From the NCBI GenBank assembly GCA_964639785.1, contig CAZXEE010000001.1, forward strand, positions 314,556-378,555: a stretch of DNA of 64,000 nt, read 5' to 3'. A program made the translations under genes and the position numbers. Of this stretch, positions 8,163 through 16,671 are shown one piece after another (the stretch's first letter is position 1; every line of letters starts with the position of its first letter). The notes below the pieces were generated by a model. The model worked only from the letters and a program-made list of their open reading frames with translations. It had not been told where the DNA came from and ran no database searches. The stretch is from an uncultured Gammaproteobacteria bacterium. Its GTDB lineage: Bacteria; Patescibacteriota; Patescibacteriia; Patescibacteriales; UBA12465.

Positions 8163-10235
8163 ATGCAGCCAAAAACTTATCTGGCCATTTTGAAATATGG
8201 CCTTTACGCGTCGTTCTTGAGCTTCTTTTTCATCTTCTCGAACCTGTTGTTCCCATACATCACTTCGAAACAGATCTCTTTCAATATCCTGATCGAGGTT
8301 TTGACCGTCTTCTGGGTGCTTCTGATCGCCACCTATCCGCAGTATCGGCCGAAGAAGAATTTCTTGACTTGGGGTATCCTGGTCTATTTCTTAGTTGTGG
8401 CCCTATCCTGTATCTTCGGAGTGGATTTTAACTTAAGCTTCTGGGGCAATGCGGAACGGATGCTGGGATTCTTCCATTTATTACACTTCTTATTATTCTA
8501 TCTGATCCTGATTACGGTTATGCGGAAAAAAGAGAACTGGGATCGCTTCTTTGATATCTCCATCGCTACCGCCGTCTTGATTACCGTCTATGGCTTGATG
8601 AAGGATTACCCGGCTTCCACTATCGGCAATGCCGCTTATGTCGCCGGCTTGATGATCTTCAATTTCTTTTTCGCTCTTTGGCGCCTTTTCTCTTGCCGGG
8701 ACTGGTGGCAGAGAAGCGTCTATATCGTAGCGGCCTTCTTGGTCTTGGTCGGTTTCTTCCAGGCTGACATTTCCGGAGCCCAAGCCGGATTGGTGGCTGG
8801 TTTAGGAGTCGCCGGTATCATTTTCTTCTTCTTACAGAAGGGAAAGAAGATGAAGATCGTCGGAGGCATCGTCTTGGCTTTATTGTTCTCAGCCTTAGTC
8901 CTCTTATTCGCCTATCGTTCCAATCCGGTTTTTGACAATACCAAGATCGGCAATATGTTACGCGCCTTCTCTTCGACTAACACTACCTGGAATACCCGTT
9001 TGCTTTCTTGGAATGCCGCTTATCTCGATTTCCATAACCATCCGATCTTGGGCGTCGGCCATGGCAATTATGCCCATATATTCGACAAGCATTTCACACC
9101 GAAATTCTATGAATACTCTCCGAGCGAAACTTACTTCGATCGGGCTCACAACAATATAGTAGAAATCGTTTCCACTTCTGGAGTCCTGGGTCTTTTGGCC
9201 TATTTGTCGATCTTCGTGGCTGCTTTCTATTACTTATTCAAGTCTTTCAAGCAGAAAAAGATCAATGCTTGGCAATTATCGGTCCTTTCCGGCCTAATCG
9301 TCGCTTATTTCGTCCAGAACTTGGCGGTCTTCGATTCCATGGTGACTTACGTCTCGCTCTTCGGCCTCTTAGGCTTCATCTATTACCGCTATCACCAATC
9401 TGAAATCGAGTCAGCCACTGACAAGAGATCGGCTTCCTTATCAGATGAGAAAGAATTAGGCTTATGGATAGCGCTTATCATCTTAGCCTTGGTTTTCGTT
9501 TTCCGCTTTAATATCCGCGGCTTCGATATGCTGAGCGGAACCATTGAAGGCTATCAATATGTGGCTAACGGCCAATTGGTGGCTGGTACCGAGATTTATC
9601 AGAAGACTTTCGCTAAAGAGGTCGGGTACAATCGTGATAGCCGCGCTTCTTTCATTAATCTCCTGACCGGAAATCCGAAGGCCCTCTTGTCTCTGCCAAC
9701 TGAAGATGCTAACAAAGTTTTGTCATATGCCGTTGAGTTAGCCGAGGCCAATGCCAATTACAATCCTGGCGACAGTTTGCTGGAAACCCAGCTGGCCAAG
9801 ATCGCTAATATCGCGGCTCGTTTCAACTTCAAAGATATCGACAAGTTCAATGAATATTCTGCTATCTCAGTTTCCGCTATCGATGCCGCCATTACAGCTA
9901 GCCCGGGCCGTTTCCCGTTGTATTATATCAAGTCCGACGTCCACATGACTCGAGGTGAGAAGGATGAAGCGGTGGCTGCTTTGAACAAGGCGATTGAGTT
10001 GAAGCCGGACTATGCCGAAGGCTATTGCAATCTGGCCAAGGTCTATTATTTCTTCAAAGACTTCGATCCAGCCTACAAGCAGGCTTGGACTTGTGCCAAG
10101 ATGGACAGTATCAGCTTGCTGGGTACCGGCAGCTTGGTTACGGATGCCGCCAAATATTACCGGGAGAAGGGTGATGCTGAGAGCGCCCAATATTTCGAGG
10201 ACTACTCGGCATCGTTGCAGAAGGTGGTGCAATAA
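8163..10235 (+). CDS. O-antigen ligase/polymerase-like (Wzy_C) membrane protein fused to a C-terminal TPR domain
   Basis: About 12 TM segments. RAHNNIVEIVSTSGVLGLLAY is a Wzy_C-like motif. The C-terminus carries TPR repeats (AALNKAIELKPDYAEGYCNLAKVYYF). Confidence 0.6.
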   Translation: MQPKTYLAILKYGLYASFLSFFFIFSNLLFPYITSKQISFNILIEVLTVFWVLLIATYPQYRPKKNFLTWGILVYFLVVALSCIFGVDFNLSFWGNAERMLGFFHLLHFLLFYLILITVMRKKENWDRFFDISIATAVLITVYGLMKDYPASTIGNAAYVAGLMIFNFFFALWRLFSCRDWWQRSVYIVAAFLVLVGFFQADISGAQAGLVAGLGVAGIIFFFLQKGKKMKIVGGIVLALLFSALVLLFAYRSNPVFDNTKIGNMLRAFSSTNTTWNTRLLSWNAAYLDFHNHPILGVGHGNYAHIFDKHFTPKFYEYSPSETYFDRAHNNIVEIVSTSGVLGLLAYLSIFVAAFYYLFKSFKQKKINAWQLSVLSGLIVAYFVQNLAVFDSMVTYVSLFGLLGFIYYRYHQSEIESATDKRSASLSDEKELGLWIALIILALVFVFRFNIRGFDMLSGTIEGYQYVANGQLVAGTEIYQKTFAKEVGYNRDSRASFINLLTGNPKALLSLPTEDANKVLSYAVELAEANANYNPGDSLLETQLAKIANIAARFNFKDIDKFNEYSAISVSAIDAAITASPGRFPLYYIKSDVHMTRGEKDEAVAALNKAIELKPDYAEGYCNLAKVYYFFKDFDPAYKQAWTCAKMDSISLLGTGSLVTDAAKYYREKGDAESAQYFEDYSASLQKVVQ

Positions 10236-10253: not shown

Positions 10254-10283
10254 AAAGCCCGGATATTTTCCGGGCTTTTTTGG
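10254..10283 (+). terminator. Rho-independent terminator
   Basis: aaagcccggatattttccgggcttttttgg. Confidence 0.8.
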
Positions 10284-10394
10284 TTCGAAAACTAGACTAA
10301 AAACCGCTTTGAAAACTAGACTGATTATTAGACTAATTATTGCCAATATATTATTTAATATAAGCCAATATATTGATAGTCTGGATTTTTTTTG

Positions 10395-10423
10395 TTGCAA
10401 ATTTTTGAAGGGTGTGTTATGAT
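10395..10423 (+). promoter_or_regulatory. Sigma70-like promoter TTGCAA-17-TGtTATGAT (extended -10) for the Fic/Doc gene
   Basis: Hexamers with a 17-nt spacer and TG at -15/-14. The same AGGGTGTTATGAT motif recurs at 24803-24814. Confidence 0.45.
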
Positions 10424-10453
10424 ATTTTTGTGATAAAAAATAAGTCCAAAAAG

Positions 10454-11683
10454 ATGACTGATAATAACAAACAATTAAGCCGATTATTCTCTCAGCCTTT
10501 CCTGAGTGCTTTTTTCGTGGATTTCGAGGCCTTGCCTGTCAAGGAGGATTTTTTGAAAAAAGCTGATGATATCCTGGCAAAATATGAGACTAGAGAAATA
10601 GACTGGCAATTAGAAAAATCATTGCGCCGGCATAACGACTTGTTGGTTTCTTTTGCAGTATCTAAGGCGGAAAATTCAGCTTTGACTCTGGCGGAAGCGG
10701 ATGAGGTTTACAAGTTGATCGAAGAACAGAAAGACTATGCTTTTTTGCATCGCAAGCTGAAGAAAGGGGAGAAGTTAACCCAGAAAGATCATGATCGTTT
10801 AGAGTATTTTAATATCGCCAAGACTTTTTGGGAATTGAATGAGACTGGAATCAAGATTCAGGACCTGACTCCGGAATTATTGACCGATTTGCATCGCCAG
10901 CTGACTGCCGGACTGGATGTCTTCTCTGATCATTTAGATAAATTCGAAACTTATCGTAGCGGCCATTTCAGGAATAACGATGAGACCAGGGTGACTAATT
11001 TCGTTCCGGCACCGCATCGGGAGATAGAGCCTAGTGTTAGGGAATTGATCAGTTGGATCAAACAGAATCCATCAGCTTTAAATGTCTTCATTTTCCATGC
11101 CGCTTTGTATGCCTTGCATCCTTTCAAGAACGGCAACAAGAGAGTATGCCGTATCTTGGAACATTTCCTTCTGCAGGATCTTGGTTACAACCAGAAGAAT
11201 CTCTATAGCCCGTCCTATTATTACCACAAGCACAAGGATAAGTATTACAAGAACTTGATCGAGGCTCTCTATAAGCGTAACCTGAATTATTTTGTCTCCT
11301 TCGCTTCTGAGGCTTTGTTCTTTTCCATTATCGGAGTAATCGTTGGCGTCTTGCAACGGAACAAGGCGGAATTTTTGGAAGCGAGCGGATTAGAAAAAAA
11401 TATCGCCAAAGTTTTGAAGCCTTTGGCAAAGTGCTCTGAAGTCCGGTTTGCCCGTTTTTATGCTTTATCTAAAAGGAAGGTAGCCCGCCAGACATTTGTT
11501 AACTATCTGGGCTTGGCGGTCGAGAGTGGAGTCTTGAAGAAAAGGGAACAGGGCCGGAATGTCTATTATTCTCTGGCCGGGAATTATCCGGAAGAAGCCT
11601 TGTTAGCTGATTTGCTGTCCCAGGCTCGGGAGAGATTCAATTATCTGCCGGAAGAGTTTGTCGGCTACGCGACGAAATTATAA
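10454..11683 (+). CDS. Fic/Doc family protein with a Doc-type active-site motif and a C-terminal winged HTH
   Basis: HPFKNGNKRVCR matches the Doc consensus HxFx(D/N)(A/G)NKR rather than the Fic HPFx(D/E)GNGR. The in-frame ATG at 10454 is downstream of the promoter. The track ORF began at a GTG at 10412 inside the -10 element. Confidence 0.7.
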   Translation: MTDNNKQLSRLFSQPFLSAFFVDFEALPVKEDFLKKADDILAKYETREIDWQLEKSLRRHNDLLVSFAVSKAENSALTLAEADEVYKLIEEQKDYAFLHRKLKKGEKLTQKDHDRLEYFNIAKTFWELNETGIKIQDLTPELLTDLHRQLTAGLDVFSDHLDKFETYRSGHFRNNDETRVTNFVPAPHREIEPSVRELISWIKQNPSALNVFIFHAALYALHPFKNGNKRVCRILEHFLLQDLGYNQKNLYSPSYYYHKHKDKYYKNLIEALYKRNLNYFVSFASEALFFSIIGVIVGVLQRNKAEFLEASGLEKNIAKVLKPLAKCSEVRFARFYALSKRKVARQTFVNYLGLAVESGVLKKREQGRNVYYSLAGNYPEEALLADLLSQARERFNYLPEEFVGYATKL

Positions 11684-11698
11684 TCAATGGTCAATTGA

Positions 11699-11727
11699 GA
11701 CCGCCCTTTGCCGGGCGGTTTTTTTGT
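11699..11727 (+). terminator. Rho-independent terminator
   Basis: gaccgccctttgccgggcggtttttttg. Confidence 0.8.
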
Positions 11728-11840
11728 TTTTTGGCGCTCTAAAAAATTTAGTTTCAGTTTAGGCTCCCTTTAGGCGTCTTCTGCTATGATAGGATCACTC
11801 TCAGATTTCGCGCGGATTTGAGAGTATAATTAATATTCTT

Positions 11841-12791: not shown

Positions 12792-12849
12792 TAGGGCGTT
12801 GGGATTGGCTTGAAGGCCATGATTGATTATAGAAAATAAGCCGTTATTT

Positions 12850-15800
12850 ATGGATAAAAAAATTAAATGGCTAGTCTGTTCTTTAGTATTTGTTTTCAGC
12901 TTGTTTATCGGTTTGAAGCCAGCTTCGGCTATGCCTCTAGGCACTATTCTGTATCGCACGTCTTCGAATAATAATGCTTATGGTTATAGTTCCAAGGATT
13001 TGTTAGTGGTCAATAAAGTCGGCTTAGTCACCAACTTGTATACCGGCCATACTGGAATCTATATCGGTAAGGAAAATGGAATTGATTATGTGGCCGAAGC
13101 TTTGCCGAGCGGATTAGTTAAGACACCGGCTAAGTATTTTTTGAATACGCGGGCAGGGGAGAAATTGATCGGAGCTAAGATCCCCAAAAATTTAACCGAA
13201 GAACAGCGGGAGAAGGTAATATCTCTGGCTCGTAATCTAACCGATGCCAAGATGAAATACGATTTTGATTTTAGGCACCAGAAGGGTTCGGAGAGCGGCC
13301 AATGGACCTGCGTTGGTTTTGTCGAGAAAATCTACGAGAGCGCCAACATCATCAATCCGAAAGATCTAGATGCTTTAGTCTATGATCAAAATGAATATGC
13401 CATCGATATCACTCCGGACGGATTTGATAATACCAGTGTCTATAATTCTAAGACCGGAGATGTCTTTTCGACGACCAAGGAATTTTCTAAGATTTCCCGT
13501 CGGCCTCGGATGCTGGTACCGGCTCCGGAAATTATCGGCTATGATGCCGGATTGGAGAAAGGCGATGACCGTTATTTCTTTATTCCGCACACCCAGTTCT
13601 TGCAACCGACCCTGGAAGATGTTCCGGTTGATATCGATTTGAGTAGCGATTTTAATGATGAGACAATCAGGGGCAAAGCACCGCAATTGGCTCTGATTTT
13701 CAAGTGGAGCTTGATCAACAATCCGAGCTCTACTTTACGTCAGGTATTGGCAGCGGCGAAAGACAAGATTAAATCTTTATTTAAAAGTGAACCAGCTCTA
13801 GCTGTTTCGGTGGTGGATAACAAGAAGGCGACAACTACTAAAAAGGCAACTACTGCCACCAAGGTTAAGACTACTAAAAAAACTACGACTACGAAGGCTA
13901 AAAAGGCTGCTACCGCTAAAAAGACTACGACGGCTAAAGCTAAAGTAACGACAGCTGCTAGCACGAAAAAGGCGGCAACTACCACAGCTAAAGTTGCCAA
14001 GAAAATTGTTGCCAATAAAGCTACTTCCAGTCCTAAAGTTGTGGTTAGTACTAAGAAGCCGGTGGTTGCTGATCAGAAAAAGATTGAACCGGAAGCGGAT
14101 AAGCCGACAGTTAAGCCGGTTGCTCCTAGCGTTGTCCCGGCTAACAATCCAGTGGTTAATAATTATCATACTACGGTGGTCAATAACCCTCCGGCTGAGA
14201 CCAAGAAGCTGATATTGATAGGAGAAGTAGGGACTGATTGGTTAGAGCTTTATAATCCTAACGAAGAAGCAATTGATCTTTCAGATGGCGCTTATCGCTT
14301 GGAAAAATCTAAGACGGCAGTTGATCCTGGAATCATGGTGCGGTTTGGCAATGAGAGCGACGGCCTCTATCCGGGCGGGGTGGAGATTCCGGCATCGGGT
14401 TCATATCTGGTAGTTTCCCAAGATGCCAGTGCGGAATTGAAGGCTAAGGCGGATGCAATCGTCAGTAATGATAATTTTTCTTGGGGTGAATCCGGTTATA
14501 CCATTTATCTGGGTGTTGGAGCTATCAGCAGTAATACTGATCCTGATATTATTGATTTTGTCGGTTTTGGCCCGGAAGCCAAATATTTTGAAGGTAGTGC
14601 TCCGGCCGGAGCTTTGGTTCCTAATTCTATTTTGGTCCGTAAAGCTAAGGCTGATTCGACTGTCGCTAGTTTGATGCCAGGCGGTGTCGATGAACTATTG
14701 GGTCATGCTTATGATACTAATCAGAACCAAAGCGATTTTGTCTTGTTGGATTTGAATCCGGTTGGAGAAAATAATAATAATGATAACACAGGGTCGGAAG
14801 ATGATAATTCAGCGACTTCAACTGATTCAGTGGCTAGCTCGACGCCGAAGATTGTGATCTCCCGAATTTATGCGACCGGTGATGATGATTATATTGATCT
14901 GTATAATGATAGTGATGAAGATTTTGATCTGACTCTAAATAATTATCGTTTGGAAAAGGCTAAGAGCGCGGCTGATCCAATGATTATGATGCGATTTGGC
15001 AATGAGAATGATGGTTCTTATCCGCGGGGAATGGTAATCAAAGCCCGATCGTATTATCGGATAGTCCGTGATGAGGCTAGTGCTGAAATTAAGGCTACGG
15101 CCCATGCCATCGCTTCCGGCAATAATTTTACTTTCGATGGCTCCGGTTACGCTTTATATTTAGGACAGGATAGTATCAGCTCGTCCGATGATGCCGATAT
15201 TATAGATTTGGTTGGTTTTGGTCTGGACGCTATTTATTATGAAGGTTCTGGCCCAGCTCCGGCGATAGTGGATGAAGGTTATCTGACTCGCAAGGCTAAC
15301 GCTAGCTCAACGATTGAGAGTTTGTCTCAGGGTGGATCAGAATATGCTCTAGGCGCTTCCTATGATAGTGACAATAATCGATCGGATTTCTTGTTGATTG
15401 GAGGGGAACCAGGATCATCAGAAATGGTTGGTGGTTATGATTCTCCGGGTTTGGCACATCTCTGGCATTTCAATGAATGTCGGGGTGAGGTAATAGAGGA
15501 TTCAGTTGGCAAGAGTGATTTTGCGGCTAAGTTTGATTGGCGGATAGGAAAATGGGGTTGTGCTTTTGAGCGGAAATTTCCCGAGGACAAACTACAAACT
15601 AGTTTTAGTGCGCTAAGCAGCAAGGGATTATCCATCGTTTTTAATTATCGCGGTTCTACTAATTGGGGCCGGACTTCTTTTGCCTTGTCCGGACCGGATG
15701 GCGGTGTCAGCGTTATCTTCGGTCCGCTTTTTGCTGAGTCTAGTGGCCTGCCGACTATGTTCCGGTCTGATAGTATCAAGTGGCCGAATGATGGAACCTG

Positions 15801-16671
15801 GCATCAAGGCGCCTTTGTTCTTAATAGCTCAGATGATTATTGGGAATTATATTTGGATGGCAAACAAGTTTATCGGGAATATTTTCAAGCGATATATTCG
15901 AAAGAGTTTACCGGACTGGAAATAAATACCGGAAACTATTTGGATGAAGTGGGGCTTTGGGGTCGAGCTTTGAGTGGAGAAGAAATTAATGGCATATTTG
16001 CCTCTCAGCTAGAATTGGCTCCGGTGAAGACCAGGGAGGCACAAATCGATCCAGTTGAAATCCATCATTGGAGTTTTAATGAAAGGGTTGGAATGGAAGC
16101 GGCCGATGATTATTCCAGTAGCAGCTTATTTATAGATCGGACTCAGTGGGTTAGGTTGGGCCATGAAGGCGCCGCTATTTCACATATTTATTCTGTTAAT
16201 AGAAAAATGTCGGTTAATCTGGCTCAAGAGATAAAGAGCGATGATCTGAGTATTGATTTTTGGTGGCGTAATCGCAGTTATTCTAGCGAGTCGCGAGGGA
16301 ATATCAGTTTGCTTGGCGATAATGATAAGCGGCTTTTCGGTTTGATATTCAGTCCTTACCGCCCGGGTTATTACATTAGCGGCAATTATGGCATGATCAG
16401 TGAAGGTCTAGGGTCAACTTTGCCACACGACAACTCTTGGCATCATTTGGTCCTAGTTTATGATTCTTATGAATATTCATTGAATTTCTATGTCGATGGC
16501 GAATTGAAATATAGCATTCCGCACCCTTGGATAGCTGATGAGGCTATCAAGAAGATAGAGATCTATAATGAACTTCGGGAATATGAATTAGATGATTTAA
16601 GTATTTGGCAGGGAGCTCTAAAGGCTTCCCAGGTTAAAGCTATTTACCAAAACGAAACAGGTGGTAATTAG
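12850..16671 (+). CDS. Giant secreted multidomain protein: signal peptide, permuted papain-like amidase (Peptidase_C92/YiiX, NlpC/P60 superfamily), Thr/Lys/Ala-rich linker, 2 lamin-tail domains (LTD), 2 LamG/ConA-like lectin domains
   Basis: Signal peptide MDKKIKWLVCSLVFVFSLFIGLKPASA. A His-then-Cys permuted papain core (YTGHTGIYIG ... QWTCVGFVEKIY). A TTTKKATTATK linker. LTD signatures at ILIGEVGTDWLELYNPNEE and IVISRIYATGDDDYIDLYNDSDE. LamG_3-like blocks at WHQGAFVLNSSDDYWELYLDGKQVY and WHHLVLVYDSYEYSLNFYVDGEL. The upstream TTG at 12823 is probably not the start. Confidence 0.75.
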   Translation: MDKKIKWLVCSLVFVFSLFIGLKPASAMPLGTILYRTSSNNNAYGYSSKDLLVVNKVGLVTNLYTGHTGIYIGKENGIDYVAEALPSGLVKTPAKYFLNTRAGEKLIGAKIPKNLTEEQREKVISLARNLTDAKMKYDFDFRHQKGSESGQWTCVGFVEKIYESANIINPKDLDALVYDQNEYAIDITPDGFDNTSVYNSKTGDVFSTTKEFSKISRRPRMLVPAPEIIGYDAGLEKGDDRYFFIPHTQFLQPTLEDVPVDIDLSSDFNDETIRGKAPQLALIFKWSLINNPSSTLRQVLAAAKDKIKSLFKSEPALAVSVVDNKKATTTKKATTATKVKTTKKTTTTKAKKAATAKKTTTAKAKVTTAASTKKAATTTAKVAKKIVANKATSSPKVVVSTKKPVVADQKKIEPEADKPTVKPVAPSVVPANNPVVNNYHTTVVNNPPAETKKLILIGEVGTDWLELYNPNEEAIDLSDGAYRLEKSKTAVDPGIMVRFGNESDGLYPGGVEIPASGSYLVVSQDASAELKAKADAIVSNDNFSWGESGYTIYLGVGAISSNTDPDIIDFVGFGPEAKYFEGSAPAGALVPNSILVRKAKADSTVASLMPGGVDELLGHAYDTNQNQSDFVLLDLNPVGENNNNDNTGSEDDNSATSTDSVASSTPKIVISRIYATGDDDYIDLYNDSDEDFDLTLNNYRLEKAKSAADPMIMMRFGNENDGSYPRGMVIKARSYYRIVRDEASAEIKATAHAIASGNNFTFDGSGYALYLGQDSISSSDDADIIDLVGFGLDAIYYEGSGPAPAIVDEGYLTRKANASSTIESLSQGGSEYALGASYDSDNNRSDFLLIGGEPGSSEMVGGYDSPGLAHLWHFNECRGEVIEDSVGKSDFAAKFDWRIGKWGCAFERKFPEDKLQTSFSALSSKGLSIVFNYRGSTNWGRTSFALSGPDGGVSVIFGPLFAESSGLPTMFRSDSIKWPNDGTWHQGAFVLNSSDDYWELYLDGKQVYREYFQAIYSKEFTGLEINTGNYLDEVGLWGRALSGEEINGIFASQLELAPVKTREAQIDPVEIHHWSFNERVGMEAADDYSSSSLFIDRTQWVRLGHEGAAISHIYSVNRKMSVNLAQEIKSDDLSIDFWWRNRSYSSESRGNISLLGDNDKRLFGLIFSPYRPGYYISGNYGMISEGLGSTLPHDNSWHHLVLVYDSYEYSLNFYVDGELKYSIPHPWIADEAIKKIEIYNELREYELDDLSIWQGALKASQVKAIYQNETGGN
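13810..14055 (+). repeat. Coding low-complexity tandem repeat (ACT/ACG/AAA/GCT-rich) encoding a (K/A/T)n linker
   Basis: Reiterated act-act-aaa-aag-gc units that translate to KKATTTKKATTATKVKTTKKTTTTKAKKAATAKKTTTAKAK... Confidence 0.7.

Follow-up and report, generated by a model that had tools for sequence, protein, structure and literature searches.

Fic enzymes of class II that have a winged helix-turn-helix (wHTH) at the C-terminus and regulate their own expression are already known, namely CccR and SoFic. The present analysis concerns a gene of this architecture (fic) and the repeat array upstream of it, both found in a stretch of 64,000 nucleotides (nt) of contig CAZXEE010000001.1 (positions 314,556 to 378,555), hereafter called the window.

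SoFic (Shewanella oneidensis SO_4266) resembles the window protein in its order of parts: helices at the N-terminus bearing an inhibitory Glu, then the Fic core and a C-terminal wHTH. It binds the DNA of its own promoter and is toxic when deregulated; the dimeric protein binds DNA within 100 bp of the start codon and AMPylates EF-Tu (bioRxiv 10.64898/2026.07.09.737422). The name SoFic is also used for a single-gene family of anti-phage defence. In the case of E. coli Sofic, an antitoxin of 47 amino acids (aa), AS1, is encoded downstream (PMC12249575). CccR of Yersinia pseudotuberculosis (PDB 7xux) is a class II Fic-HTH protein repressing its own promoter (PMC9755527). It shares with the window protein an Asn at position 5 of the catalytic motif (HPFGNGNGRTVR) and an N-terminal inhibitory helix (SARIEG), but has Gly at position 8 and AMPylates FtsZ, and its operator consists of two inverted 10-bp repeats 26 bp apart (AGATAATCAT-N26-ATGATAATCT) near the -35/-10 elements (PMC9755527).

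Doc of phage P1 shares with the window protein the nine-residue signature HxFx(D/N)(A/G)NKR, in particular the Lys at position 8, which is held to invert ATP binding and to make Doc an EF-Tu kinase (review PMC4177925). In other respects Doc differs, being a single domain of ~125 aa with a truncated six-helix core, without a flap, a second Arg or an intramolecular Glu helix, and being neutralised and co-regulated by the separate antitoxin Phd. The metazoan class II enzyme FICD (HYPE) has, like the window protein, a Fic core and an inhibitory Glu, which in FICD also toggles AMPylation and deAMPylation; it differs in its canonical GNGR loop, its TPR/transmembrane N-terminus and the lack of a wHTH.

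Although the window protein shares the build of SoFic and CccR, it falls into a clade of its own, most of whose members come from Patescibacteria (candidate phyla radiation, CPR). It is not an ortholog of SoFic (32.5 bits with the SoFic equivalog model NF046030, cut-off 550), from which it differs by Asn226 and Lys229 in place of the canonical HPFxDGNGRxxR, by Ile/Val instead of Ser/Thr four residues before the inhibitory Glu, and by an extra insertion at about aa 86-103. What is new is a class II Fic-wHTH clade in which a Doc-like Lys is invariant and goes together with further changes of the active site, and a putative operator of 3-5 phased direct repeats (12/12/11-bp period) instead of an inverted pair as in CccR. 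No description of a class II Fic clade with this Lys (below, Lys-type) was found in the open-access literature.

Protein Family and Fold

The Pfam Fic model PF02661 matches the window protein with 52.1 bits (cut-off 24; E 1.2e-13), as well as all 58 of 58 aligned homologues. The alignment of these homologues, with identity to the query down to 46%, served as the profile for structure searches. It matched the SoFic structures 3eqx and 3zcn (1.6e-10) along both the Fic core and the wHTH, as far as aa 371, and FICD at about 4e-10. Comparison with canonical class II relatives in the hhalign program gave a probability of 100 and an E value of 1.8e-41 over 330 columns, reaching aa 379, and the SoFic model of PADLOC matched the query at 3.4e-29. 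As for the SoFic-like C-terminal domain PF21248, the query alone gave E=0.02, below the cut-off, while 8 of the 58 homologues matched at E<=0.01.

According to the confident AlphaFold (AF2) model built on the alignment of the 58 homologues (mean predicted local distance difference test, pLDDT, 93.7; predicted template modelling score, pTM, 0.91), the region of aa 315-374 folds into three helices and a two-strand wing, i.e., a winged HTH, and a short two-strand hairpin is present at aa 180-183 in the flap region. The closest PDB folds are 4rgl, 7xux (CccR), 8cil, SoFic and 7cb8 (class II Fic-wHTH), with FICD next. Doc was absent from both the fold search and the profile search, even when the catalytic segment of 45 residues was used alone as the query; this segment matches Fic AMPylases, the aligned motifs being HPFGNGNGR in 7xux (CccR) and HPFEDGNGR in 3cuc. 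Among the NCBIfam models, those for SoFic and "mobile mystery protein B" outscore the Doc model TIGR01550, yet they also remain under their own cut-offs. TIGR01550 itself gave 15.4 bits (cut-off 38.65) and covered aa 217-246 alone.

Since the profile, fold and catalytic-segment matches all point in this direction, the window protein belongs with the class II Fic proteins that have a wHTH at the C-terminus and not with Doc. The first-pass annotation of this DNA had called it a Fic/Doc-family protein with a Doc-type motif, and membership in the Doc family was rejected on model score, size, fold and the lack of Phd; its observations that the protein is larger than Doc (about 409 aa) and carries a C-terminal winged-HTH-like region were borne out, the latter by the SoFic profile, the AF2 model and hhalign. 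A true Doc-type toxin from a Phd-Doc pair whose antitoxin was lost or is hidden is extremely improbable. The motif does fit HxFx(D/N)(A/G)NKR, but the length of 409 aa, the full class II fold with the predicted flap-region hairpin, the sub-threshold TIGR01550 score and the absence of Doc from the fold and sequence searches all oppose this explanation, and no Phd-like neighbour was detected in the window or in 11 homologue loci with called genes that were inspected.

Catalytic Loop and the Lys-Type Clade

The catalytic motif reads HPFKNGNKR (aa 222-230, nt 11117-11143) and continues as HPFKNGNKRvcR. It departs from the canonical AMPylation motif HxFx(D/E)GNGRxxR at position 5 (Asn) and position 8 (Lys) and retains from it the His, Phe, Gly6, Asn7, Arg9 and Arg12. 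The form H(P/A)FxNGNKR, with an invariant Lys, was found in 120 of the 120 closest homologues. Most source names of these point to Patescibacteria (Falkow-, Davies-, Collier- and Levybacteria); some records bear labels of Gammaproteobacteria, Clostridia or Fusobacteriaceae metagenome-assembled genomes, which are unconfirmed. In the 58 aligned homologues, His222, Phe224, Asn226, Gly227, Asn228, Lys229, Arg230, Arg233 and Glu73 are invariant.

An exhaustive profile search of 1.84 billion cluster representatives returned 54 clusters with E<=1e-30 and 241 with E<=1e-10. The motif census was made on the best 150 cluster representatives, 107 of which had a readable motif. Positions 5-12 read NGNKRxxR in 44 of them, NWNKRxxR in 7, NGNGRxxR in 5 and D/E-GNGRxxR in 51. 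In every motif with Lys at position 8 (51/51), position 5 is Asn and the final Arg is present, and the combination of D/E with Lys occurred in none of the 107. The Lys is always accompanied by Asn at position 5, by the second Arg and by a remodelled inhibitory helix (see below). The closest Gly-type relative, P0189, has HPFVNGNGR and the inhibitory helix STKIEY and may be an intermediate. A Lys-type subgroup (P0153, P0160, P0169, P0175, P0205 and P0232) carries HxFxNWNKR, with Trp in place of the first anion-hole Gly; its members may be inactive or may use yet another substrate.

The five Fic motif groups of Khater and Mohanty include the Doc-type patterns H...[DE]GNKRxx[not R] and H...N[AG]NKRxx[not R], and none of the five is NGNKRxxR (PMC4454073). 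Because the motif lies outside these groups, the active site is, judging from its residues, a hybrid in which a second Arg and a Glu brake, as in Fic AMPylases, are joined to the Lys (and Asn) of Doc. Since Asn at position 5 is also present in the AMPylating CccR (PMC9755527), Lys229 is the sole truly Doc-like catalytic feature.

Inhibitory Helix and Predicted Chemistry

The family alignment contains an almost invariant stretch SFA(I/V)SKAE, in which S66, S70, K71 and E73 are invariant among close homologues. Both the MAFFT alignment with canonical relatives and hhalign placed the residues I/V69-S70-K71-A72-E73-N74 in the columns of S-(S/T)-x-I-E-G. In the window protein this segment is VSKAEN, which differs from the textbook (S/T)xxxE(G/N) at one residue, having Val and not Ser/Thr four positions before the Glu. 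The Glu is kept in 40 of 42 full-length Lys-type sequences; four residues before it, Ile is found in 32 of these 42, compared with Ser/Thr in 46 of 50 Gly-type sequences, and the residue after it is variable, compared with Gly in 43 of 50 in the Gly type. By these alignments VSKAEN is homologous to the alpha-inh helix of class II enzymes, with a predicted inhibitory function. In the proposed scheme, Glu73 would brake the enzyme through the retained Arg233, and a partner antitoxin would be unneeded. That Glu73 is such an intramolecular brake acting on Arg233 is probable, the contact between the two residues being suggested by the alignment.

Several statements of the first-pass annotation bear on this active site. 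Its observation that the motif fits the Doc consensus was upheld. Its Doc-specific reading of the motif survives for Lys229 and fails for the Asn, which CccR shares. It had also reported no obvious inhibitory helix and had named a helix of the canonical type beforehand as evidence against its view; a homologous helix with an invariant Glu is present.

As for the chemistry, Lys229 replaces the anion-hole Gly of AMPylating Fic enzymes, and the proposal is that the nucleotide would consequently be inverted and a phosphate, not AMP, passed to the target. By the precedent of Doc, such phosphotransfer is a plausible outcome to which we give slightly less than an even chance. Of the kinase reading of the first-pass annotation, a hypothesis on the chemistry is what is left, with no claim to membership in the Doc family. 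Transfer of AMP or another nucleoside monophosphate (NMP) is rather unlikely, and other chemistry or no catalysis is somewhat less likely still.

An ordinary SoFic-type AMP (or NMP) transferase, in which Lys229 is tolerated or tunes nucleotide choice, would be an autoinhibited toxin or anti-phage effector with EF-Tu (as for SoFic), a topoisomerase or FtsZ as the target. The architecture, the fold and the nearest sequence relatives all belong to AMPylases, the catalytic-loop segment by itself matches these and not Doc, the second Arg and the inhibitory Glu, both invariant, are the residues that deal with the gamma-phosphate when ATP is bound in the AMPylation mode, and CccR AMPylates despite its Asn at position 5 (PMC9755527). 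However, Gly8 belongs to the anion hole, and a Lys in its place is what reportedly inverts ATP in Doc (PMC4177925). In addition, the Lys does not vary across the clade and is linked with further changes in the active site, which speaks for a changed binding mode rather than neutral drift, and searches of the PDB gave no solved class II Fic structure with Lys at position 8. On this evidence, we consider the AMPylase explanation doubtful.

It is highly improbable that the protein is a catalytically inert transcription factor whose Fic domain does no more than sense a ligand or mediate dimerisation for the wHTH. In favour of this, the motif departs from the canonical form at two positions, the HxFxNWNKR of related subgroups departs further, and DNA binding, predicted from sequence comparison, is the best-supported part of the analysis. 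Against this, the catalytic residues and Glu73 are invariant in homologues down to 46% identity, whereas pseudoenzymes usually lose the catalytic His and their loop drifts.

Upstream Repeat Array

Upstream of fic, three direct TAGACT copies lie in one 12-nt register. The first two are contained in direct-repeat units of 15 nt, TTCGAAAACTAGACT (10284-10298) and TTTGAAAACTAGACT (10308-10322). The exact 11-mer AAAACTAGACT occurs twice in the 64 kb, both times in the array. Across the whole window the TAGACT hexamer shows no enrichment (18 copies vs 20 expected), but three of these 18 are clustered within 42 nt at this locus. Two abutting TAGACT hexamers on the minus strand at 1529-1540 are distant from fic and off the 12-nt register, and probably arose by chance.

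To judge conservation, 30 homologue loci were used that had been ascertained by protein similarity and independently of the repeats. In 29 of them, 2-6 direct TAGAC(T/C) copies are present upstream of fic, and 26 have at least three. In an extended set of 47 non-redundant loci, 22 of which were motif-ascertained and hence are not independent, at least three copies were found in 43, and 115 of 119 spacings equal 11, 12, 23 or 24 nt. The consensus of the repeat unit is TAGACT(A/G)AT(A/T)A(T/C), with a typical spacing of 12/12/11 bp. In these loci the background frequency of TAGACY is ~3e-4 per nt per strand, corresponding to ~0.07 copies per upstream region of 260 nt, compared with ~3.4 observed.

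The exact 18-mer TAGACTAATAATTAGACT was found in 48 metagenome contigs, and in 22 of these a fic homologue follows 29-163 nt downstream in the same orientation. Three of the other contigs end before the gene, two (L074 and L078) have lost fic, and most of the rest hold nothing beyond the two copies in the query 18-mer itself, surrounded by unrelated DNA. In L074 and L078, the repeat array and the AT-rich box described below are intact (L078 diverges inside the promoter), and unrelated sequence stands in place of fic. From their sequence, both look like remnants of fic loss or replacement, which fits fic as an accessory cassette.

Some further occurrences were noted. In the 371-kb contig L064, a three-copy TAGACT array (spacing 24, 12) is located at about 2120-2180, directly 3' of a different Fic-like ORF and 5' of a gene for an 86-aa HTH (excisionase-like) protein; it might represent another target, or a module that has been rearranged. 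In L049 (Ga0129299_1000108), TAGACTAATAATTAGACT is found at 604-621 within a spacer of a CRISPR (clustered regularly interspaced short palindromic repeats) array having 158 copies of the repeat GTTGCAGAGGACTAATACCCGACTGAGGGTACTGAAAC. A protospacer search for this spacer gave no match beyond the 18-mer in any fetched locus; the match may be fortuitous, or an element bearing the TAGACT operator may be the target of the spacer.

Repeat Core and Recognition Helix

In divergent subfamilies, the core of the repeat shifts together with the recognition helix of the protein encoded downstream, while the spacing is retained (Table 1); helices beginning with NDK, for example, go with GTAAGT-type cores in two independent loci (L100 and L034). 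In close homologues of the window protein, Gln346 and Thr347 of this helix are invariant.

Table 1. Recognition helices of Fic-wHTH proteins and the repeats upstream of their genes
Locus	Recognition helix	Repeat core and copies	Spacing (nt)
Typical loci	ARQTFVNYL (aa 344-352)	TAGAC(T/C) x2-6	12/12/11
L031	AEQSFNNQL	TAGAGT x4 + TAGAGC	11, 12, 12, 11
L100	NDKQIAEAL	GTAAGT x4	12, 12, 11
L034	NDKILSSLL	(A/G)GTAA(G/A/T) x5	11, 13, 11, 11
L095	PDRTVAEYL	TTGCAGT x3	12, 11
L097	TERTLVNYL	T(T/G)CA(G/C)(T/C) x4	12, 12, 11
L098	TDRTIANYL	TTTCA(C/G/T) x5 in array, sixth copy 29 nt upstream	12, 11, 12, 11
L099	SERHIYDTL	GTGCAGTAGTC x2 (core GTGCAGT)	11
L037	YTLGVSQMIL	T(A/G)TGAT x3	11, 11
L036	YKQSKSAELL	20-nt unit x2	22

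A core that changes with the helix at constant spacing is what would be expected of a protein reading its own operator and is hard to reconcile with an unlinked regulator. We therefore regard it as highly probable, from these comparisons, that the wHTH binds the array and autoregulates fic. Alternatively, the TAGACT array could be the site of another regulator or a DNA-level element, the Fic protein not being self-regulating. The distance of the array from the core promoter in the subgroup of the window would suit this, as would the few array-like sites without a fic gene (L050, L064). The explanation is nevertheless improbable: the array accompanies fic into unrelated neighbourhoods, an unlinked regulator would not predict the covariation with the recognition helix, and L074 and L078 resemble remnants in which the regulatory region was kept and fic is gone.

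The suggestion of the first-pass annotation that operator-like repeats perhaps mediate autoregulation through the wHTH is, at the level of sequence, strongly supported by the homologue arrays and the helix-core covariation, and the promoter that it had proposed (TTGCAA-17-TGtTATGAT) was confirmed. Of the four AGACTA/TAGTCT copies that it had counted, three are conserved, in-register direct copies, the second of which reads AGACTG, and the inverted one is unconserved.

The short contig L100 carries two Fic genes (1-862 and 1501-2745), and in its upstream region a 7-nt tandem repeat, (A)GGTAAT x3, lies at -45 to -20, between the GTAAGT array and the start codon.

Promoter Layouts and AT-Rich Box

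The array takes one of two positions relative to the promoter. In the proximal layout, which most relatives have and which is seen in lineages ~43-50% identical to the query, the -10 element of the best sigma-70-like promoter is the first TAGACT or ends 4-6 nt before it, and the array extends to 4-19 nt before the ATG. TAGACT is compatible with the TAnAnT pattern of a -10 hexamer, and this layout is the classic geometry of a repressor. In the distal layout, characteristic of the subgroup of the window (identity >=50%, Falkowbacteria-like), the array is placed 120-161 nt before the ATG and about 65-90 bp upstream of the -35 hexamer, and the -10 of the conserved promoter falls at about -36 (in some members at about -12). 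Autoregulation as such is well supported at the window locus by the comparisons; because the array lies far upstream of the -35, the sign and mechanism of control there are less certain. A promoter immediately 5' of the distal array was also considered; no convincing -35/-10 pair was seen there by eye, and the conserved proximal promoter always scores best. The position and sequence of the latter are kept among close relatives.

Between the array and the promoter of the window lies an AT-rich box that is kept only in the distal-array subgroup (relatives L002, L008, L009, L035, L073, L084 and L089). In the relatives it is often a quasi-palindrome, GCTTATAT-N15-ATATAAGC, and for 9 of 10 relatives the box of the window aligns better when reversed. 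A second binding site is one possible role, DNA bending another.

Proposed Mechanism

Taken together, the array, the promoter and the class II Fic-wHTH protein probably form a self-contained single-gene module. In this scheme, the C-terminal wHTH would bind the direct TAGACT repeats and so control transcription of its own gene, with Glu73 holding the enzyme in check, and the role of the module would be that of a toxin-like growth-arrest or anti-phage switch. Such a growth or defence function is speculative and is drawn from the accessory, variable contexts and the fic-loss remnants. That the clade unites toxin, antitoxin and repressor in one polypeptide, as a Doc-type phosphotransferase that has kept the Glu brake and the second Arg, can be put forward only tentatively; the coupled changes would be Asp to Asn at position 5, Gly to Lys at position 8 and the remodelling of the inhibitory helix.

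Several points weigh against this explanation. At the window locus the array is too far upstream for simple occlusion of the promoter, and the conserved AT-rich box (10340-10376) is unaccounted for by the proposed mechanism. In the covariation of helix and repeat, each specificity class is represented by only one or two loci. Doc lacks both the second Arg and the inhibitory Glu, which are invariant here and which handle the gamma-phosphate of ATP in the canonical AMPylation orientation; to judge from the sequences, their invariance fits nucleotide binding of the AMPylase type at least as well as the inverted type. In FICD, the equivalent Glu is required for deAMPylation, so a hydrolytic or reversible role is possible. 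DeAMPylation has been reported for SoFic (bioRxiv 10.64898/2026.07.09.737422).

The Fic fold is a model for change of chemistry, as it supports AMPylation, UMPylation, phosphocholination and phosphorylation, the kinase activity being so far tied to the small, truncated Doc. The clade described here sets the Lys of Doc in a complete class II scaffold with the inhibitory Glu and the second Arg, and hence offers a natural test of the role of this Lys. If the Doc-type chemistry is true, the clade would stand between Fic AMPylases and Doc kinases as a living intermediate, and its operators tracking the recognition helix would be a natural recognition code for this type of wHTH. The roughly ten natural helix/repeat pairs at 12/12/11 spacing are a data set for DNA reading by wHTH domains and possibly a source of orthogonal repressors. 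The clade is widespread in Patescibacteria, which have small genomes with few regulators, and its persistence there suggests an important role in growth control or defence.

Transcription Unit and Genomic Context

The positions of all features are given in Table 2. The ORF as listed opens at GTG 10412, but ATG 10454 is the likely start of fic, because the N-termini of homologues begin there (P0001: 99% identical, 409 aa) and because the predicted -10 hexamer sits 3' of the GTG. The coding sequence 10454-11683 was confirmed. The upstream Wzy/TPR gene stops at 10235 and is followed by its own terminator, which sets the 5' limit of the fic unit; a second terminator follows fic. From these signals, fic is predicted to be monocistronic, forming its own transcription unit between the two terminators.

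No credible small partner ORF was found on either side of fic, in agreement with the first-pass annotation, which had reported no partner antitoxin gene. An AS1-like ORF was sought downstream and not found, so that the locus differs in this from E. coli Sofic; the only ORFs near the 3' end of fic are TTG-started ones of 21 aa and 34 aa that span the terminator. An Rfam scan of the fic leader gave no match above the gathering score, with weak matches on the upstream terminator region and the repeat region.

Table 2. Features of the fic locus in the window and neighbouring genes in related loci
Feature	Position	Strand	Remarks
Terminator of the upstream Wzy/TPR gene	10254-10284	+	Hairpin 10254-10278 (perfect 10-nt arms), then T-run
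Operator-like array	10284-10340	+	Direct TAGACT copies starting at 10293, 10317 and 10329; spacing 24 + 12
AT-rich box	10340-10376		Two GCCAATATATT copies (10342-10352, 10364-10374), 22 nt apart
Inverted AGACTA copy	10377-10382	-	TAGTCT on + strand; no counterpart in aligned upstream regions of relatives; probably chance
Sigma-70-type promoter	10395-10423	+	TTGCAA (10395-10400), 17-nt spacer, TATGAT (10418-10423), extended -10 TG
fic gene	10454-11683	+	409 aa; class II Fic enzyme with C-terminal winged HTH
Inhibitory-helix motif VSKAEN (aa 69-74)	10658-10675	+	Glu73 at 10670-10672; aligns with (S/T)(S/T)xIEG
Fic core domain PF02661 (aa 138-240)	10865-11173	+	
Catalytic loop HPFKNGNKRVCR (aa 222-233)	11117-11152	+	His222, Asn226, Lys229 (11138-11140), Arg230, second Arg233
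Winged helix-turn-helix (aa 315-374)	11396-11575	+	Profile, AF2, hhalign
Recognition helix ARQTFVNYL... (aa 344-357)	11483-11524	+	
Intrinsic terminator of the fic transcript	11697-11732	+	Hairpin 11697-11722
Toxin-antitoxin/nucleotidyltransferase-type neighbours	L002 6461-7408; L005 6927-7862; L095 2921-3349; L097 1-582		
Toxin-antitoxin/nucleotidyltransferase-type neighbours	L003 7207-7929; L006 7021-7709 and 9292-9861		

Synteny of fic is not conserved, the downstream neighbours being different in every inspected locus. Across loci, the neighbouring genes are unrelated and include those for polysaccharide synthesis (Wzy/glycosyltransferase), SecA, IF-2/RbfA, WD40 proteins, and toxin-antitoxin or nucleotidyltransferase pairs. 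The fic homologues often adjoin genes of NTP_transf_2 nucleotidyltransferases, some of them paired with a small or HepT-like ORF; other neighbours are AbiEii, PIN/MazE, BrnT/CopG and HipA genes, typical of variable toxin-antitoxin/defence islands. In the window, two genes 3' of fic, a very large ORF is located at 12823-16671 (1282 aa by the ORF listing, 1273 aa as called on the matching Logan contig). It encodes LTD and laminin-G-like domains joined by low-complexity linkers rich in Thr, Lys and Ala, typical of CPR surface proteins.

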